Source: a virus. Taken from it: a stretch of DNA of 38,625 nucleotides. Below, in pieces: positions 5,922-38,625 of the stretch. The notes beneath the pieces are model-generated. The model did no database searches. It was not told where the DNA came from and saw nothing but the letters and a program-made list of their open reading frames with translations. The position numbers and the translations under genes were made by a program. The stretch lies in the UHGV virus genome UHGV-1545242; one strand, 5' to 3'. Positions within the stretch are counted from its first letter, which is position 1; each line of letters starts with the position of its first letter.

Positions 5922-5936
5922 TTACCCGTAAGGTAA
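5922..5936. promoter_or_regulatory. Operator-like palindrome TTACC-N5-GGTAA (leftward early promoter region)
   Basis: ttacccgtaaggtaa between repressor terminator and first leftward gene. Confidence 0.6.
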
Positions 5937-5993: not shown

Positions 5994-6578
5994 TTATTGT
6001 TTGCTTTTTTCGTTCTGGTTGATGACAAATTCAATGTAACTTTCGATCTTTGCTTTCTCGGTTTCGGGTAACAATGCGTAGCGTGAGCGGTCATAGTTGA
6101 TAGTCGCAGGGTCGTGCGGGTGAATCAGTAGTTCATATCCGTGACGCCCGAATGCGGATGCAACATTCTCCAGGGTGGAAATGGAAACGCTGACCTCATT
6201 GTTTAACAGGCGGCTGATTGTCACCTGGGCGACGCCGGATGCGCGGTGAAGTTTTCCCTGCGTTGAAAGGTCGCGGCTTTCGCTCATCCAGCGTTCCAGG
6301 TTGTGAGCCGCCAGCTGACCAATGTCGCTTGGGCCGACAGGCTGAAAACCTTCCTGAGAAAGCGAGCGATCGATATCAAGCCAGTTACGGGGTTTATTGG
6401 CGGCAGCTTCAATTTTTCGCGCAACCTGGTCGCCGATAACCTTCTTGCCAAGAGCCCAGCGGTTTACCAGATTTGCCTGAGTTCCAAGTTTTTCTGCCAT
6501 CCGCGTCTGAACACCATTGAATTCACGGTCGATCAAGTCGTTGAGATTTTGCCTGCGGACGTCCTGGATACTTTTCAT
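5994..6578 (-). CDS. Prophage repressor (CI-like position), HTH DNA-binding protein without S24 peptidase domain
   Basis: Divergent from Cro-like gene; two HTH-like segments (MAEKLGTQANLVNRW; GVAQVTISRLLNNE); no Ala-Gly/Ser-Lys LexA-like autocleavage motifs seen. Confidence 0.7.
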   Translation of the reverse strand: MKSIQDVRRQNLNDLIDREFNGVQTRMAEKLGTQANLVNRWALGKKVIGDQVARKIEAAANKPRNWLDIDRSLSQEGFQPVGPSDIGQLAAHNLERWMSESRDLSTQGKLHRASGVAQVTISRLLNNEVSVSISTLENVASAFGRHGYELLIHPHDPATINYDRSRYALLPETEKAKIESYIEFVINQNEKSKQ

Positions 6579-6963: not shown

Positions 6964-6985
6964 TATCCAGCTACAACCCTCTGTA

Positions 6986-7010
6986 GACCGCCACCCGGCG
7001 GTCTTTTCAT
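6986..7010 (+). terminator. Rho-independent terminator after cro-like gene (tR1-like)
   Basis: GACCGCC-accc-GGCGGTC followed by TTTTC. Confidence 0.6.
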
Positions 7011-7018
7011 ATCTATTC

Positions 7019-7033
7019 GTACCTCAAAGGTAA
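7019..7033. promoter_or_regulatory. Operator-like near-palindrome GTACC-N5-GGTAA after cro terminator
   Basis: gtacctcaaaggtaa, preceded by atctattcgt. Confidence 0.45.
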
Positions 7034-7113
7034 TAAATAACCAAATCTGGTTGATCTTTTTTTTGTGTCAGCACAAAATGACCGTAATCCCAATACTAAT
7101 AACAGGGCTTACC

Positions 7114-7314
7114 ATGGAAATCATTACACGTATTGATGCCGCAAAGCGCGGACTTAAACGCTACTACACCGGAAAACCATGTAAGCACGGACATGACAGT
7201 GAACGCTGGGTTTACAACGGACACTGTGTTGAGTGCACCATGGAATCAAACCGTCGCATCAGGGCAGAGATTAAGCAGATCATGATTAATTCCTCCCCAC
7301 AACACTCAAGCTGA
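7114..7314 (+). CDS. Small Cys/His-rich protein (possible zinc-binding regulator)
   Basis: CKHGH...HCVEC spacing; start uncertain (ORF opens at 7051). Confidence 0.45.
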   Translation: MEIITRIDAAKRGLKRYYTGKPCKHGHDSERWVYNGHCVECTMESNRRIRAEIKQIMINSSPQHSS

Positions 7315-7329
7315 TAGCGGAGATTAATC

Positions 7330-8163
7330 ATGAGCAGACATGCAACAGATTGGGCCTGGGAGACAGATCCAGGTAGCTCATCATTAAAGCTCATACTGCT
7401 CTCGATGGCTGACAGAGCCGATGAATATAACCTCTGCTACCCCAGCATAGAACGCCTCGTTAAAGACACTTGCCTGAATAAAAAAACCGTGCAGGCCGGG
7501 CTTATATCGCTCATGAAAATGGGGCTTATTTCAGATACCGGAGAGAGAAAGGGAGCGACAAAAAGAGTGCGGGTTTTCTCTCTTAATATAACCAAAAACG
7601 GGAACATTAAAGGCAACCGGGAGGGGGGCAATGAACCCGAAAACGGTAATGTTACCGAAAACGGGAATATACCCAAAAACGGGATGTTGAATGATCCCAA
7701 AAACGGGATGTTGAATGATCCCAAAAACGGGATCCAGAACCAGTCATATAACCAGTCATTTAACCAAGAGAGGGAGAGCAGGACAAAAACCGGGGATTCT
7801 GTGCCTCATGACCCCGGCGCAAACAACGCCGTGATGAATAACTTTGTTCCTCCTGGTGGGCCAGGGCAATTAGGTAAATTTGTCATGCATGAACAATGGC
7901 AGCCATCAGATGACTTTCTTCGGAAAAGCTCATTGCAGGGAATCTACCTGGACAGTCTGCCAACGGCACAGGAACTTGCAGAGTTCAGAATTTACTGGAT
8001 GGCTGAGGGTAAGGCATACCATCAGGCACAGTGGGAGCAGAAGCTGGCAAGGCGCATCCAGTTCTGTAGACAGAAATCAGGTGAAGTCAGAAAGAGCCTT
8101 GACTGGCATAACACTGACTGGATAGATGAGGTGTGGGATGAAATCAACTCCAGAACTTCTTAA
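7330..8163 (+). CDS. Replication initiator (lambda O-like / replisome organiser) with internal origin iterons
   Basis: N-terminal HTH region (WETDPGSSSLKLILLSMADRADEYNLCYPSIERL), followed by iteron-encoded repeats and a C-terminal domain preceding the P-like gene. Confidence 0.75.
   Translation: MSRHATDWAWETDPGSSSLKLILLSMADRADEYNLCYPSIERLVKDTCLNKKTVQAGLISLMKMGLISDTGERKGATKRVRVFSLNITKNGNIKGNREGGNEPENGNVTENGNIPKNGMLNDPKNGMLNDPKNGIQNQSYNQSFNQERESRTKTGDSVPHDPGANNAVMNNFVPPGGPGQLGKFVMHEQWQPSDDFLRKSSLQGIYLDSLPTAQELAEFRIYWMAEGKAYHQAQWEQKLARRIQFCRQKSGEVRKSLDWHNTDWIDEVWDEINSRTS
7592..7732. repeat. Iteron array, candidate replication origin inside the initiator gene
   Basis: Six copies of CC(C/G)AAAACGGGA at 7592, 7636, 7655, 7672, 7696, 7720 including a perfect 24-bp tandem CCCAAAAACGGGATGTTGAATGAT; followed by AT-richer direct repeat cagtcatataacc/cagtcatttaacc. 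Confidence 0.65.
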
Positions 8164-15774: not shown

Positions 15775-15789
15775 TTACCTGAAAGGTAA
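15775..15789. promoter_or_regulatory. Operator-like palindrome TTACC-N5-GGTAA upstream of portal/late operon
   Basis: ttacctgaaaggtaa, identical to site at 32822. Confidence 0.55.
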
Positions 15790-31999: not shown

Positions 32000-32084
32000 T
32001 ATTCGGAATTGTATTGTTCGGAAGAATAATAAAATAACTAGTTAATTTGTGGATTGGTGCTGTTTTTCCATGATAGGGGTAATT

Positions 32085-32465
32085 ATGAGAAAAGTATTTT
32101 TGATTTTTGGATTTATGCTTCTCGTTGGATGCCAGTCAGCTGCACAGTTTGAAAGAAATATGCTTACGTGGCGCGGGCAGAGTATAGACGCAATGGTTCA
32201 GCAGTGGGGGTATCCTCAGGGAGAGCTTACATCTCCAGATGGAAACAGAGTGTATGTTTACTCAAGCTCTGGTAGTTATAACGTACCACAAACCACAACG
32301 TATAATACTACGTCTAATCTAATTGGTAATACTATATATTCAAACACATACGCAACAACTGATGGCGGTTATACACTCCATTTCAGTTGCTCTGTTTACG
32401 TTGAGTTTGGTGCTGATAAGATTATTAAAAATGTTACATGGCGCGGTAATAATTGCGTTGCGTGA
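32085..32465 (+). CDS. Outer-membrane lipoprotein (moron), candidate superinfection-exclusion factor
   Basis: Signal peptide with lipobox MRKVFLIFGFMLLVGC, +2 residue Gln; Thr/Ser/Tyr/Asn-rich mature part with two C-terminal Cys; AT-rich. Confidence 0.65.
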   Translation: MRKVFLIFGFMLLVGCQSAAQFERNMLTWRGQSIDAMVQQWGYPQGELTSPDGNRVYVYSSSGSYNVPQTTTYNTTSNLIGNTIYSNTYATTDGGYTLHFSCSVYVEFGADKIIKNVTWRGNNCVA

Positions 32466-32473
32466 CATGTCAC

Positions 32474-32496
32474 AGGCCGCTTTCGCGGCCTTTAAA
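32474..32496 (+). terminator. Terminator hairpin between convergent moron genes
   Basis: AGGCCGC-tttc-GCGGCCT followed by TTTAAATTT. Confidence 0.55.
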
Positions 32497-32497
32497 T

Positions 32498-32755
32498 TTA
32501 CCGGGTTTGTTTTCGTAATTGTTCGGCACAATAGTCGAGATGTGTTTGCAGATCCTGCATAGACATCTGTGAGCTGGTGACGTAGTTAATCAATGCAGTC
32601 AGTTCGGCAAGTGGGCCATCGACATTAAATCCATCCTTATCGAGATCCCGGAGTAATTTCATCAAGTGCGATCCCTCCACCAGTGACCTGACGCCTCCCG
32701 GCGTGTGAATCCTTTCGGTAAATCCGTCTTCCAGTGGATAGTGATACTGCTGCAT
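32498..32755 (-). CDS. Hypothetical 85-aa protein, convergent to lipoprotein and divergent from tailspike
   Basis: Minus-strand ORF open in AT-rich DNA; ATG at 32755 preceded by GGAGAAG; ORF track shows a longer 126-aa extension. Confidence 0.5.
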   Translation of the reverse strand: MQQYHYPLEDGFTERIHTPGGVRSLVEGSHLMKLLRDLDKDGFNVDGPLAELTALINYVTSSQMSMQDLQTHLDYCAEQLRKQTR

Positions 32756-32821
32756 CTTATCTTCTCCATGCAATAACTGTATATTTATACAGTAGCAAAT
32801 AATTTGTTTGCTATCCAGCAC

Positions 32822-32836
32822 GTTTTGCAAATTACC
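32822..32836. promoter_or_regulatory. Operator-like palindrome TTACC-N5-GGTAA in divergent region upstream of tailspike
   Basis: ttacctgaaaggtaa; followed by atctattcgta, also seen at 7011-7021. Confidence 0.55.
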
Positions 32837-32950
32837 TGAAAGGTAATATCTATTCGTATTTACAGTCTTTCTATCCATATGTGGTTTTCCAGGTAATAGA
32901 ATAACCAGATATGCGGCGCAACGGGTGCTGCGACTATCTGGAGATTTAAC

Positions 32951-35900
32951 ATGACGGTCTCAACCGAAGTTGACCACAACGAATACACCGGTAACGGCGT
33001 TACGACATCGTTTCCGTATACTTTTCGAATTTTCAGAAAATCAGACCTGGTTGTTCAGGTGTCTGACCTGAACGGAAACGTAACAGAATTGGTTCTGGAT
33101 ACCGGTTATACGGTAACTGGGGCGGGCACTTATAGTGGCGGTTCTGTGGTTCTTCCGTCTCCGCTTGCTACTGGATGGCGAATTACGATAGATCGTGTGC
33201 TTGATGTAGTGCAGGAGACAGACCTTCGCAATCAGGGAAAATTTTTCCCCGAAGTGCATGAAGATGCCTTTGACTACCTGACGATGCTGATCCAGCAATG
33301 TTTTGGGTGGTTCAGACGTGCATTGATGAAACCATCTTTGCTTGCAAAATATTACGATGCAAAGCAAAACAAAATTTCTAACCTTGCAGATCCATCATTT
33401 GAGCAGGACGCTGTAAATAATCGCTCAATGCGTAATTATGTCGATGCTGCAATCGCCGGGGTTGTTGGTGGTTTTGGTTGGTTTATTCAGTATGGTTCTG
33501 GGGCTGTGTACCGAACGTTCCAGGATAAAATGCGTGATGCTATTAGCCCCAAAGATTTTGGAGCTGTTGGTGATGGTATAAATGACGATTCCACTGCAAT
33601 AAGCGCGTGCCTTGAAGCCTCATCTCCAGGTTATAAAATTGACGGATTAGGGCTTACTTTTAAAGTATCAACTCTTCCGGATGTCAGTCGATTTAAAAAT
33701 GCTCGTTTTTTATTTGAGAGAATACCGGGCCAGCCTCTTTTTTATGCTTCTGAAGATTTTATCCAGGGAGAGTTATTTAAAATTACAGATACACCGTGGT
33801 ACAACGCCTGGACGCAGGATAAAACGTTTGTATATGACAATGTCATCTATGCGCCTTTTATGGCTGGAGACCGCCATGGTGTAAATAACCTCCATGTTGC
33901 ATGGGTTCGCTCAGGAGATGACGGGAAGACCTGGACAACGCCGGAATGGCTTACAGATTTACATGAAAACTATCCCACAGTTAACTATCACTGCATGAGT
34001 ATGGGGGTTGTCAGAAATCGCCTTTTTGCTGTAATTGAGACGCGGACCGTGAGAGGAAATAAACTGCAGGTTGCAGAGTTGTGGGATCGCCCAATGAGTC
34101 GCAGCCTTCGCGTTTATGGTGGTATAACGAAAGCAGCAAATCAGCAAGTCGCTTATATTCGCATTACTGATCACGGATTATTTGCTGGTGATTTTGTCAA
34201 CTTCTCAAACTCTGGTGTTACAGGTGTTACCGGGAATATGACGGTGACTACTGTTATTGATAAAAATACCTTTACAGTTACGACGCAAAATACCCAGGAT
34301 GTGGATCAGAATAACGAGGGTAGATACTGGAGTTTTGGCACATCATTTCACTCGTCACCATGGAGAAAAACCAGTCTTGGAACTATTCCTTCTTTTGTTG
34401 ACGGAAGCACTCCTGTTACTGAGATTCACAGTTTTGCGACGATTAGCGATAACAGTTTTGCTGTTGGCTACCATAATGGTGATATTGGTCCACGCGAGCT
34501 TGGGATACTCTATTTCTCTGATGCTTTCGGTTCTCCTGGTAGCTTTGTTCGCAGACGCATACCTGTAGAATATGAGGCGAATGCATCTGAGCCATGTGTA
34601 AAATATTATGATGGCATTCTGTATCTGACGACCAGGGGGACATTAAGTACTCAACCCGGTAGTTCATTGCACAGAAGCTCTGATTTAGGTACATCATGGA
34701 ATTCTCTTCGCTTCCCAAATAATGTTCATCACTCAAACCTTCCTTTTGCCAAAGTTGGCGATGAGCTGATTATTTTTGGCAGTGAGCGCGCATTTGGTGA
34801 GTGGGAAGGAGGAGAACCTGATAACCGTTATGCAGGAAATTATCCAAGAACATTTATGACCAGAGTTAACGTCAATGAGTGGAGTCTGGATAATGTAGAG
34901 TGGGTTAATGTTACTGATCAGATTTATCAGGGCGGAATAGTTAACTCTGCGGTTGGTGTTGGTTCAGTTTGTATCAAAGACAACTGGCTGTACTACATTT
35001 TCGGTGGGGAAGACTTTCTAAACCCATGGAGCATAGGGGATAACAACAGAAAATATCCTTATGTTCACGATGGTCACCCGGCTGATTTGTATTGTTTCAG
35101 GGTGAAAATTAAACAGGAAGAATTTGTTTCAAGGGATTTTGTCTACGGAGCCACTCCTAACAGAACGCTTCCTACTTTTATGTCGACGTCAGGCGTGAGG
35201 ACGGTTCCTGTACCCGTTGATTTCACAGATGATGTTGCCGTCCAGTCACTGACTGTCCATGCAGGTACATCAGGACAAGTTCGCGCGGAAGTCAAACTTG
35301 AGGGTAATTACGCCATTATTGCGAAGAAAGTACCGTCTGATGATGTTACCGCTCAGAGATTAATCGTTAGCGGCGGTGAAACAACGTCTTCAGCAGATGG
35401 TGCAATGATAACGTTGCATGGTTCCGGAAGCAGTACTCCACGTCGCGCGGTATATAACGCACTCGAACATCTTTTTGAGAACGGAGATGTTAAACCTTAT
35501 CTTGATAATGTAAATGCTCTTGGTGGTCCGGGAAACAGGTTCTCGACAGTTTATCTTGGCTCCAATCCTGTGGTTACCAGTGACGGAACATTAAAGACAG
35601 AGCCGGTCTCTCCTGACGAAGCATTGCTGGATGCCTGGGGTGACGTCAGGTATATCGCTTATAAATGGCTGAACGCTGTCGCTATAAAGGGGGAAGAAGG
35701 GGCGAGGATACATCATGGTGTAATCGCGCAGCAACTTCGTGATGTTCTTATTTCTCACGGACTCATGGAAGAAGAAAGCACAACATGCCGCTATGCCTTT
35801 CTTTGCTATGACGATTATCCCGCAGTATATGATGACGTCATTACTGGCCAAAGGGAAATGCCGCTGACTGATAATGACGGGAGCATCATTGTTGATGAGG

Positions 35901-36070
35901 ATGATAATCCAGTGATGGTAATAGAAGACATCATTGAGCGCGTTGAAATAACGCCAGCAGGATCTAGATGGGGGGTCAGACCTGATCTCTTATTCTATAT
36001 CGAGGCAGCATGGCAGCGCAGAGAAATGGATAAGATAAAAGAGCGGGTTCAGTCTCTGGAAGAACGTTAA
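32951..36070 (+). CDS. Tailspike/depolymerase with C-terminal intramolecular chaperone (S74-type) domain
   Basis: 1039 aa; conserved N-terminal virion-attachment region; central DFGAVGDGINDDSTAI beta-helix start motif; C-terminal TSDGTLK...YIAYKW...RIHHGVIAQQL pattern. Confidence 0.85.
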   Translation: MTVSTEVDHNEYTGNGVTTSFPYTFRIFRKSDLVVQVSDLNGNVTELVLDTGYTVTGAGTYSGGSVVLPSPLATGWRITIDRVLDVVQETDLRNQGKFFPEVHEDAFDYLTMLIQQCFGWFRRALMKPSLLAKYYDAKQNKISNLADPSFEQDAVNNRSMRNYVDAAIAGVVGGFGWFIQYGSGAVYRTFQDKMRDAISPKDFGAVGDGINDDSTAISACLEASSPGYKIDGLGLTFKVSTLPDVSRFKNARFLFERIPGQPLFYASEDFIQGELFKITDTPWYNAWTQDKTFVYDNVIYAPFMAGDRHGVNNLHVAWVRSGDDGKTWTTPEWLTDLHENYPTVNYHCMSMGVVRNRLFAVIETRTVRGNKLQVAELWDRPMSRSLRVYGGITKAANQQVAYIRITDHGLFAGDFVNFSNSGVTGVTGNMTVTTVIDKNTFTVTTQNTQDVDQNNEGRYWSFGTSFHSSPWRKTSLGTIPSFVDGSTPVTEIHSFATISDNSFAVGYHNGDIGPRELGILYFSDAFGSPGSFVRRRIPVEYEANASEPCVKYYDGILYLTTRGTLSTQPGSSLHRSSDLGTSWNSLRFPNNVHHSNLPFAKVGDELIIFGSERAFGEWEGGEPDNRYAGNYPRTFMTRVNVNEWSLDNVEWVNVTDQIYQGGIVNSAVGVGSVCIKDNWLYYIFGGEDFLNPWSIGDNNRKYPYVHDGHPADLYCFRVKIKQEEFVSRDFVYGATPNRTLPTFMSTSGVRTVPVPVDFTDDVAVQSLTVHAGTSGQVRAEVKLEGNYAIIAKKVPSDDVTAQRLIVSGGETTSSADGAMITLHGSGSSTPRRAVYNALEHLFENGDVKPYLDNVNALGGPGNRFSTVYLGSNPVVTSDGTLKTEPVSPDEALLDAWGDVRYIAYKWLNAVAIKGEEGARIHHGVIAQQLRDVLISHGLMEEESTTCRYAFLCYDDYPAVYDDVITGQREMPLTDNDGSIIVDEDDNPVMVIEDIIERVEITPAGSRWGVRPDLLFYIEAAWQRREMDKIKERVQSLEER

Positions 36071-36075
36071 AAAAA

Positions 36076-36096
36076 AGCCCGCAAAATATTGCGGGT
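36076..36096. terminator. Hairpin after tailspike (possible terminator)
   Basis: AGCCCGC-aaaatatt-GCGGGT flanked by A-run upstream; lacks strong downstream T-run on plus strand. Confidence 0.35.
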
Positions 36097-36376
36097 ATCA
36101 AAAACGGAGTTGGTGAAAAGTTATCTTTGAATTCTATCATGAATCAGTACGTATTTTAAATACATGTTCAGGTTTATTACACCATAGCATTATTAAATAC
36201 AAAATTAAGTCTATGGTTCCTGTACAACTGCCCCCACTCTGCTGGCTCGTTCTGTAAAATCATTAGTACTTTTATTGAGATATATGATATGGAACAATAA
36301 TGATTCATATATGGTTTACTATGCGGGTTTAGTCATCAATAATTGACTGGCTTATAGATAGTAAACAGGAGAAAGT

Positions 36377-36781
36377 ATGTCTGCTCAAGTAACAAGTGAG
36401 CAATTAAATCAGTTGCTTAGTTTTGGTTCTCTTGCTGCAGTTATTGCAGGTGTCCCTCCGGAGGTTGCTTTAGGGGCTTTGGCTGGGGCGGTAATTTTTG
36501 TTACCTCTGCAGTAGAGTACCCCATCCGTCGCCGGGTGCTCCTGTCGATGCTCAGCTTTCTTTGCGGCCTTCTCTTTTACAAACCAGCAGCATCAATTCT
36601 TATCGGCATAGCCAGCCTGATCCCTACCATCACGCAGGACTCTTTTGAAAAAGGGATTGTTTTCTCTGCAGGCGCATTCGTGTCAGCAATTGTCGCTGTG
36701 CGTATTGGTATATGGCTCTATCACCGTTCCGATAATCCACGCGAGTTAATTCCGGGGAGAAAAGACGATGGTAACGCATGA
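36377..36781 (+). CDS. Holin (multi-TMD)
   Basis: Hydrophobic segments separated by short charged loops, charged C-terminus; SD AACAGGAGAAAGT then ATG; precedes endolysin. Confidence 0.7.
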   Translation: MSAQVTSEQLNQLLSFGSLAAVIAGVPPEVALGALAGAVIFVTSAVEYPIRRRVLLSMLSFLCGLLFYKPAASILIGIASLIPTITQDSFEKGIVFSAGAFVSAIVAVRIGIWLYHRSDNPRELIPGRKDDGNA

Positions 36782-37076
36782 GTTTTTTTTGCTTATCACT
36801 AATGCAGTTATTTGCACTGGCATAGCAATTCGCGTTGTCACATTCCGGCGTAACGGCTCTCAACATCGAAGGTGGGGAGGATGGCTTGCTTATTTCCTGA
36901 TTGTTGCTGCGGCCAGTATTCCTGTTCGAGTCGCCTATGCAATCTGGTTACGTACGCCAATGGCTGTGGATTTATCTGAGGTCATTATCAACGCTGTCAT
37001 GCTGGCTGCGGTTATTAAAACGCGCGGTAACGTCGTTCAAATTTTTAAAGTATCGAGGTCTAAACATGGAGATTAA
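36768..37076 (+). CDS. Second small membrane protein of lysis cassette (holin/antiholin-like)
   Basis: Three hydrophobic stretches; overlaps holin stop and endolysin start. Confidence 0.5.
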
Positions 37077-37695
37077 ACAATTCCAGCGAGCTGCTGGTAT
37101 CAGCGAGGCACTGGCCGCACGCTGGTTCTCGCATATAACTTCTGCGATGAAAGAGTTTGGTATCAGCAAAGCAGAAGATCAGGCAATGTTTATTGCTCAA
37201 GTCGGGCATGAGTCTGGGGGCTTCACCAGGTTGCAGGAGAATTTCAACTACAGTGTCAGCGGACTGGCTAACTTCGTTCGGGCTGGGCGTCTCACTCAGG
37301 GGCAGGCTAATGCACTGGGGCGCCGTGCTGGTGAACCACCATTGCCACTTGAGCGCCAGCGCGCGATCGCAAATCTGGTATACAGCAAACGCATGGGGAA
37401 CAATGCCCCTGGTGATGGCTGGAATTACCGAGGGCGCGGACTTATCCAGATTACCGGTTTGAATAACTATCGTGATTGCGGAAACGGTCTGAAGGTTGAC
37501 CTGCTGGAGAGCCCTGAACTGCTGGCGCAGGACGGATATGCGGCTCGTAGCGCGGCGTGGTTCTTCGCCAGCAAAGGATGCATGAAGTATACCGGCGATA
37601 TTGCACGTGTAACTCTGATTATCAATGGTGGCCGGAACGGCATCGACGACCGGCGAGCGCGGTACATCACTGCCAGTAAGGTGCTGGCGGTATGA
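37066..37695 (+). CDS. Endolysin, glycoside hydrolase family 19 (chitinase-like lysozyme)
   Basis: GH19-type motifs [12 protein letters not shown] and [12 protein letters not shown]; start at MEIKQF (ORF track begins further upstream). Confidence 0.85.
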
Positions 37696-38174
37696 TCTGG
37701 GCATTCGTAAAAGCATACTGGAAACAGTTTCTTATCGTGGCAGTGCTTGCTGTTCTGGTCATATCAGGAGTGGTTGCCTGGAATATACACGGCAGTCGCC
37801 AGTACGATGCCGGGTATGCTCAGGCGGAAGAAGACCGCAAAGCCGAAGAAGACAAAGTTCGTCAGTACTACGAACAGGAGAAAGTGACCAATGAACGTGA
37901 AGCTCAGCAGAGGATCGACCAGGCGCGCAATGATGCTCTTGATGCTGCCGCTAGCGCTGGCCGGTTGCAGCAACAACTCTTTGCCATCCGTGAGCAGCTC
38001 AGGCAGTATAACGCCATTGTCGGCGCTGGGTCGTCAGCCGCAGACACCGGAGTTTTGCTTGCCGACGTGCTCAGCAAATCTCTCGAGAGAAACAGACAAC
38101 TGGCAGAGTATGCTGACCGGGCAGCCGAAGCCGGAAGAGTCTGCGAAAAACAGTACGACACTTTGACCAGATAG
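37692..38174 (+). CDS. Rz: i-spanin (Rz-like)
   Basis: N-terminal TMD ([18 protein letters not shown]) then charged coiled-coil periplasmic domain; follows endolysin. Confidence 0.75.
37891..38166 (+). CDS. Rz1: o-spanin (Rz1-like) embedded in the Rz gene in an alternate frame
   Basis: Lipoprotein signal [13 protein letters not shown] and Pro/Ser-rich mature region, wholly inside Rz coordinates. Confidence 0.6.
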   Translation: MNVKLSRGSTRRAMMLLMLPLALAGCSNNSLPSVSSSGSITPLSALGRQPQTPEFCLPTCSANLSRETDNWQSMLTGQPKPEESAKNSTTL

Positions 38175-38200
38175 CATGGCATTTTTCATGGTACTGATTT

Positions 38201-38211
38201 CCGGTGACGGT
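38201..38211. promoter_or_regulatory. GGTGACGGTAT 11-mer, candidate integrase arm-type site (right)
   Basis: Identical to 126-136; followed by related ACGGTAC. Confidence 0.35.
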
Positions 38212-38327
38212 ATATAAAACGGTACGGGAAAAATTGAGATTTGGAAAAATGTTATCACTCAATTGGTTATGGTTATCGTAAATAATTGAGTGGGAATGAT
38301 TTTGATCCCTGCACTATGAATGAACAA

Positions 38328-38355
38328 AACCCTCTGTTACTACAGAGGGTTTTTT
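38328..38355 (+). repeat. Right copy of boundary direct repeat (attR candidate); hairpin plus T-run, rho-independent terminator-like
   Basis: aaccctctgttactacagagggtttttt; near-identical to 47-74. Confidence 0.65.
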
Positions 38356-38393
38356 ATCTTCAAGAATTATAGGCTTGAAGTTACTTACATCGA

Positions 38394-38625
38394 TTAATTA
38401 AACCAGCTGTCCGATTTGTTCTCTTCTGCTTTGCCCACGCTTTTCATCAGATCGCGACCGCCTTCAGTCATATTTCTGTTTGCGTCAGCTTCAGATTGCA
38501 CCACATCGGTTTGCGCAGCTTTGTGCTTCAGTTCCTGATCGATAAATTCGTTTTCTCGCTTAACGCGGGCTGAACCGCCCCGGGTTTCCTGGAGAGTGTT
38601 TTATCTGTGAACTCAGGCTGCCAGA
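38394..38625 (-). CDS. 3' end of flanking host gene (partial, convergent to prophage end)
   Basis: Minus-strand frame open to window edge, ending ...MTEGGRDLMKSVGKAEENKSDSWFN; lies outside the right boundary repeat. Confidence 0.4.

Follow-up and report, generated by a model that had tools for sequence, protein, structure and literature searches.

A predicted K1-capsule endosialidase tailspike of a Uetakevirus prophage, with a mosaic of adaptor, catalytic core and self-cleaving chaperone

Phage vB_EcoP_ZX5 (ZX5) encodes a receptor-binding protein, ORF7 (QTH80017.1), for which an N-terminal tail-fibre domain, a middle endosialidase domain and a C-terminal intramolecular chaperone of endosialidase have been published (Li et al., 2022, PMC9782041). 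Also described are the catalytic residues H350, R549, E581, R596 and R647 of endoNF, the gp17 protein of coliphage K1F (PMC12632334; structures 1v0e, 3gvl and 3gw6), and the Ser-Lys dyad of S74 chaperone domains (PMC3742443). Dpo31 of the marine podovirus Carin-1 (28lx/8ck1) presents a beta-sandwich, D1 (residues 8-87), on the virion base, followed by a three-helix coiled coil, D2, and it also releases by itself a C-terminal domain of ~18 kDa (PMC13317679). Here, we compare with these systems the tailspike gene of the virus genome UHGV-1545242, whose whole stretch of 38,625 nucleotides is called the window below. We estimate at about 95% the probability that this gene encodes a K1-capsule endosialidase tailspike of a Uetakevirus prophage, in which an adaptor, a GH58 core and an S74 chaperone are assembled as a mosaic. 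The enzyme family, the self-cleaving chaperone and the ZX5 ORF7 protein are already published, and the protein is an ordinary member of the K1 endosialidase family.

At the DNA level, the tailspike gene is 99.8% identical to ORF7 of ZX5; the gene and its flanks are common to both phages (32498-38301, 99.7%), on the same Uetakevirus backbone. The open reading frame, with a ribosome-binding site GGAG located 7 nucleotides 5' of the ATG, is intact and has kept every catalytic and cleavage residue. An initial annotation, made from the sequence alone, had described a modular tailspike with a conserved N-terminal adaptor, a beta-helix depolymerase core and a self-cleaving C-terminal chaperone. The sequence facts that it quoted (reading frame, motifs, cleavage serine, shared upstream element) were each found in place, and the modular plan was confirmed by Pfam, by PDB matches and by the relatives, which assign an adaptor, a cassette and an S74 domain. 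A search of the tailspike against NCBIfam gave no match, which is neutral for its identity. The coordinates of all features are given in Table 1.

By homology, the core (residues 205-876) is a GH58 endosialidase (endo-N-acetylneuraminidase), and not a beta-helix. It is covered by the Pfam domains End_N_terminal (E = 5.9e-32, 110 bits for a cut-off of 26.3), End_beta_propel (E = 1.7e-232, 771 bits, cut-off 24), End_beta_barrel, inserted in the previous one (E = 3.2e-46, 156 bits, cut-off 35), and End_tail_spike (E = 8.4e-78, 260 bits, cut-off 25). In the PDB search, the same residues aligned end-to-end with endoNF (1v0e, 3gvl; E = 0) and matched the endosialidase of phi92 (4hiz, E = 9e-271). 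As the identity to the endoNF crystal structure reaches 66% over the catalytic part, the fold is considered settled. The fold of endoNF, established background (reportedly Stummeyer et al., 2005), combines a propeller of six blades with a beta-barrel and with a stalk of triple-beta-helix/beta-prism type, in agreement with the Pfam names. The order of the domains is that of endoNF from its residue 246 to the C-terminus, with an identity of 56% for the stalk region and of 54% for the chaperone. When the whole protein was aligned to K1F gp17 and CUS-3 siaK1, the alignment placed H309, R515, E547, R562 and R613 opposite the catalytic residues of endoNF, in the order listed above (5/5 conserved), and the cleavage residues are identical too. 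Two Asp-boxes, SGDDGKTW and SSDLGTSW, were found at residues 321 and 576. EndoNF differs by a T7-type N-terminal adaptor and by the lack of FVDGSTP (residues 482-488, 34394-34414), a 7-residue insertion that is common to CUS-3.

The initial annotation had left the specificity open between O-antigen and capsule. This openness can be given up, as the substrate assigned is alpha-2,8 polysialic acid, that is, the K1 capsule. The siaK1 protein of CUS-3, which is 99% identical, carries direct-assay evidence in its annotation; polysialic acid cleavage by the present tailspike, and the dependence of its phage on the K1 capsule, are predicted from such homology.

The last ~160 residues had been attributed to an endosialidase-type S74 chaperone, and this attribution holds for the last 163. 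The Peptidase_S74 domain (residues 877-937, 41.4 bits, cut-off 22) comes directly after the stalk, and the endoNF chaperone domain 3gw6 was matched with E = 2e-93 by the whole protein (residues 757-1038 aligned) and with E = 3e-69 by the C-terminal fragment alone, covering residues 839-1038. The quoted patterns TSDGTLK, YIAYKW and RIHHGVIAQQL correspond to residues 876-882, 901-906 and 919-929. The cleavage serine, which had been expected near 35579, falls exactly there, at codon 35579-35581. This Ser877 and Lys882, located five residues further, align with Ser911 and Lys916 of endoNF. The mature endoNF chain in the crystal stops at ...SNPIVT910, for which the equivalent here is ...SNPVVT876, followed by S877. 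Autoproteolytic cleavage of the tailspike would thus be expected by analogy, with predicted products of 97.1 kDa (mature chain) and 18.6 kDa (freed domain).

The proposal of a conserved N-terminal adaptor was likewise confirmed, as ~196 residues are common to Uetakeviruses with other receptor modules. Over the adaptor, phiv142-3 and EC.W1-9 have a DNA identity of 97-98%, compared with 83-88% for phiV10 and PAS61, and none of the four has the receptor module found here. EC.W1-9 (where the protein is called "eliminase") and phiv142-3 ("tail fiber") have the same or almost the same residues 1-196, and conservation in phiV10 (O157) and PAS61 (O146) extends over residues 1-~155. The N-termini of over 20 tail-fibre/spike families of PHROG also match the adaptor, and about residues 1-209 align with residues 1-215 of Dpo31 (E = 2e-34) and are homologous to its beta-sandwich D1 and coiled coil D2. 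The catalytic D3 of Dpo31 is not an endosialidase, and no similarity was found past its N-terminal 215 residues. PhiV10p25 of phiV10, gp20 of epsilon15 and other Uetakevirus receptor-binding proteins share with the present tailspike the gene position (after a small divergent gene and before holin/endolysin), the promoter region and the adaptor, whereas they are not related to it in their receptor-binding parts, whose specificities include O157 and O146.

In siaK1 (ABQ88383.1) of CUS-3, a P22-like Lederbergvirus resident as a prophage in E. coli K1 RS218, the catalytic part, the stalk and most of the chaperone are alike, with 7 amino-acid differences over residues 234-1025. In contrast, CUS-3 has a P22-type head-binding N-terminus, its last 14-15 residues are distinct, and a neuO O-acetyltransferase region, absent here, lies downstream. 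A homology map was drawn from BLAST searches against six relatives and from base-level alignments. The idea of a swappable specificity cassette is well supported by this map, since 33649-36027 is 99.3% identical to siaK1 while the adaptor is common to Uetakeviruses with other modules. Backbone homology with the relatives runs ~580-596 nucleotides into the gene before the left seam, and is followed by a patch that has ~60% identity to the backbone and ~60% to CUS-3. A donor was sought in the phage collection for this patch (33529-33648) and for the right flank (36028-36351), and the ZX5 lineage was the sole match in both cases. The divergence between this tailspike and the other Uetakevirus receptor proteins sets in at the same DFGA/GDGxxDD motif, which is the module junction. 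Also, both ends of the CUS-3-like block lie within endosialidase-homologous sequence; we infer that two endosialidase genes already existed and that homologous exchange between them homogenised the central block, atop an older fusion of adaptor and cassette.

Table 1. Features of the tailspike locus in the window.
Feature	Position	Strand	Details and basis
Tailspike gene, endosialidase type	32951..36070	+	1039 aa, 115.7 kDa precursor; ORF list, Pfam architecture, DNA identity to ZX5 ORF7
Virion-binding adaptor, Uetakevirus type, aa 1-196	32951..33538	+	DNA identity to relatives, PHROG, Dpo31
Endosialidase N-terminal extension, aa 205-271	33563..33763	+	PF12218; endoNF alignment from residue 246
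Catalytic six-bladed beta-propeller, aa 272-721	33764..35113	+	PF12217; 70% identity to endoNF
Inserted beta-barrel, aa 383-465	34097-34345	+	PF12195
Trimeric stalk, aa 722-876, predicted C-terminal end of the mature protein	35114..35578	+	PF12219; endoNF alignment
Intramolecular chaperone/autoprotease domain, aa 877-1039, 18.6 kDa	35579..36067	+	PF13884, 3gw6
Uetakevirus backbone, with the small divergent gene, the promoter and codons 1-~193 of the adaptor	32498 to ~33528		
Left junction patch, aa 194-233, with the DFGAVGDGINDD motif (aa 202-213)	33529..33648	+	backbone identity ends ~33528; CUS-3 identity begins 33649
Cassette core common to CUS-3 siaK1 (P22-like Lederbergvirus)	33649..36027	+	99.3% DNA identity
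Right junction: last 14 codons, hairpin 36078-36095, lineage-specific spacer	36028..36351	+	backbone homology back at ~36352
Conserved divergent regulatory region	32759..32950	.	near-identical in relatives
LexA-box-like CTGTATATTTATACAG	32777-32792		
Palindrome TTACCTGAAAGGTAAT	32832-32847		
ATCTATTCGTA upstream of the tailspike	32848-32858		
Second ATCTATTCGTA copy and overlapping palindrome TACCTCAAAGGTA	7011..7032	+	directly past the hairpin of the early region (~6988-7006, followed by a T-run up to 7010)

We propose that this tailspike would act as the receptor-destroying protein of a temperate podovirus that lysogenises K1-encapsulated E. coli. The beta-sandwich and coiled coil of residues 1-196 would dock the trimer on the tail, and residues 205-876 would bind and cleave alpha-2,8-polysialic acid, which would allow the virion to tunnel through the K1 capsule. 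Residues 877-1039 would drive the folding of the trimer, after which the chaperone would free itself by a cut between Thr876 and Ser877 that depends on Ser877 and Lys882, so that a mature subunit of 97 kDa and a fragment of 18.6 kDa would result. In evolutionary terms, a Uetakevirus adaptor would have been fused at the DFGAxGDG motif to an endosialidase cassette, of which the central 2.4 kb would belong to the allele pool of CUS-3 siaK1.

This proposal builds on the observed domain homology, conserved catalytic and cleavage residues, mosaic boundaries and distribution of the gene, and some points weigh against it. R837, S848 and Q853 are residues of the polysialic acid-binding site in the endoNF stalk, and Q853 is replaced here by Met819, although Met is also present in the active CUS-3 enzyme. 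The activity, the processing and the K1 receptor of this prophage are deduced by homology, and the ZX5 paper (PMC9782041) contains no receptor test. Two other readings of the gene have to be weighed. The core could be a right-handed parallel beta-helix (pectate-lyase fold) depolymerase of O-antigen or capsule, as the initial annotation proposed from DFGAVGDGINDDSTAI (residues 202-217, 33554-33601), and the DFGAxGDG motif within it, DFGAVGDGINDD, is indeed similar to the way in which beta-helix glycanases begin. There are weak local matches at residues ~185-227 to the beta-1,3-glucanase 5m5z (E = 1.3e-4) and to the Sf6 tailspike 2vbe (0.011), as well as one to the pectate-lyase-like family PF12708 (E = 0.036). 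However, all of these span only ~20-40 residues, and PF12708, with 14.3 bits for a cut-off of 27, covers residues 201-221 only, that is, the 21-residue motif itself, which here falls in the endosialidase N-terminal extension, before the beta-propeller. The catalytic region being wholly accounted for by the propeller, barrel and stalk of endoNF, we rejected a beta-helix core, to which we give practically no credence. The gene could also be a decaying prophage relic without a functional tailspike, as damaged copies exist elsewhere, with an IS3-family insertion in 23CRST038 and a frameshift in the CUS-3-type copy of CE10. But the frame is intact here, ZX5, which carries the almost identical gene, is a plaque-forming phage, and the window contains a complete, collinear Uetakevirus genome, so that decay appears very unlikely.

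The third alternative concerns the exchange of tailspikes rather than their function. It had been suggested that ATCTATTCGTA and a palindrome, both present at the tailspike promoter and at 7011-7033, could form a recombination seam. The similarity between the two sites is real: the window contains exactly two copies of ATCTATTCGTA (7011-7021 and 32848-32858), although this alone is weak since two or more copies also arose in 8 of 100 shuffles, and each copy has the palindrome TACCT-N-AAAGGTA next to it (7020-7032 and 32833-32845), in the reverse order from one site to the other. The role as a seam was not retained. No homology extends beyond the short motifs between 6965-7115 and 32760-32950, the best local score being 18 versus 17 for unrelated tiles of the window, and the gapped motif AGGTAATA-N-AATAACCA has a single occurrence when up to 3 mismatches are allowed. 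ZX5, EC.W1-9, phiv142-3, phiV10 and PAS61 show hardly any variation in the promoter region 32759-32950; six Uetakeviruses carry it with five different receptor-binding modules, and for this reason it is backbone and not a seam. The alignment of relatives located the breakpoints within the gene (33529-33648) and downstream of it (36028-36351), and none at the promoter, through which homology passes without interruption. Together with the further copies of the palindrome described below, which fit a binding site for a regulator, these results make a seam at the promoter extremely improbable.

The palindrome itself is present in four exact intergenic copies in the window, at 137-149 (before int), 7020-7032 (just past the early terminator), 15776-15788 and 32833-32845. 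When up to 2 mismatches are allowed, the window contains 18 matches, compared with 1.6 expected; degenerate copies are found at 5923, 6635, 6652 and 9021, some of them beside the gene for a helix-turn-helix repressor, which is encoded at 5994-6578 on the minus strand. Copies also exist at orthologous positions in ZX5, EC.W1-9, phiv142-3 and phiV10, and in phiV10 the counterpart of the 7011-7032 site lies directly past an annotated terminator. The palindrome is probably a binding site (operator) for a phage regulator. A scan of 32759-32950 (+ strand) with the sigma-70 consensus revealed no promoter-like site.

How the cassette came to be shared was addressed by comparing 7 Uetakevirus-type and 6 CUS-3-type copies over the 2379-nucleotide core. 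Among these 13 copies, 22 sites are variable; two of them (gene nucleotides 729 and 780) are fixed between the types, and the remaining ~20 are shared polymorphisms. Both types of gene are co-resident in IHE3034, CE10, APEC O18, F11, AF14 and EC69. In five genomes, the distances within a genome were 5, 6, 11, 11 and 13, versus 5-15 between genomes; the pairs within a genome are no closer, and these five genomes thus give no sign of recent conversion in situ. Based on the two fixed differences and the ~20 shared polymorphisms, we tentatively suggest, at slightly less than even odds, that the endosialidase cassette is a common allele pool of P22-like CUS-3 and phiV10-like prophages in K1 E. coli, often co-resident, with repeated exchange confined to 33649-36027. 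Under a shared pool, the diverged 120-nucleotide 5' patch and the 3' tail may be what is left of an endosialidase allele that was older and separate. The locus is also an example of a single receptor-destroying cassette on two different virion adaptors, and the coordinates of the seams could help to engineer chimeric tailspikes on the Uetakevirus adaptor.

Among 5426 complete genomes of E. coli, 72 contain the tailspike gene at full length; genes of the CUS-3 type numbered 181. Carriers include IHE3034, CE10 (O7:K1), IAI39, APEC O18 and cerebrospinal-fluid isolates, and the DNA identity to prophage genes in K1 E. coli is 99.8-99.9%. IHE3034, APEC O18 and IAI39 are K1 strains as well, and carriers of this kind speak indirectly for the predicted K1 specificity. 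The value of the analysis lies mainly in a correct annotation, by which the prophage is marked as K1-capsule-specific; this is relevant to strains of neonatal meningitis, to extraintestinal pathogenic E. coli (ExPEC) and avian pathogenic E. coli (APEC), and to anti-K1 phage or enzyme tools. Not all copies of the two gene types are whole: an IS3-family element lies within the Uetakevirus-type gene of 23CRST038 (NZ_AP045810.1) and another within the CUS-3-type gene of 2022E04-002 (NZ_CM132301.1), and the frameshifted CUS-3-type copy of CE10 is in NC_017646.1 (L013).

The window is a complete and collinear phiV10/epsilon15-like (Uetakevirus) prophage. Its genes follow the order integrase (193-1449), early genes, structural genes, tailspike, two holin-like genes, GH19 endolysin and Rz. 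Homology to ZX5 wraps from position 38301 to position 1 of the window, at 7891/7892 of ZX5, so that the two genomes are circularly permuted relative to each other. From this wrap, 1-38301 is the whole prophage, and the last ~320 nucleotides (38301-38625) are probably flanking host DNA. The corresponding prophage end abuts yfgI in strain N25, while the integration site reported for ZX5 is the 3' end of guaA.

Between the tailspike and the following genes (36071-36376), only the hairpin (36078-36095) and the lineage-specific spacer are present, without a receptor-modifying acetyltransferase. Elsewhere the same slot holds the neuO region (CUS-3) or O-antigen acetyltransferases, which stand beside the tailspike in phiV10 and PAS61 and not beside this one.

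On the other side of the gene, a strong LexA-box-like palindrome, CTGTATATTTATACAG, is located 19-34 nucleotides upstream of the divergent gene (32498-32758, minus strand), and its CTGT-N8-ACAG frame is conserved in six Uetakeviruses. The divergent gene encodes 86 residues, matches phrog_450 and is weakly similar to the C-terminus of the anti-repressor family phrog_1760. This arrangement suggests a candidate SOS-controlled, small anti-repressor-like module beside the tailspike.

Upstream of 32498, the window and ZX5 differ. A lipoprotein-like open reading frame (32049-32465, +) with a probable start MRKVFLIFGFMLLVGC at ~32085, belonging to phrog_3716 (unknown function), is placed here between the last large virion gene and a terminator (32474-32491), whereas ZX5 has ash and anti-repressor genes. 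The slot is variable, with anti-repressor, ash or toxin-antitoxin genes in ZX5, phiV10, phiv142-3 and strain N25, and the lipoprotein-like reading frame looks like a moron.

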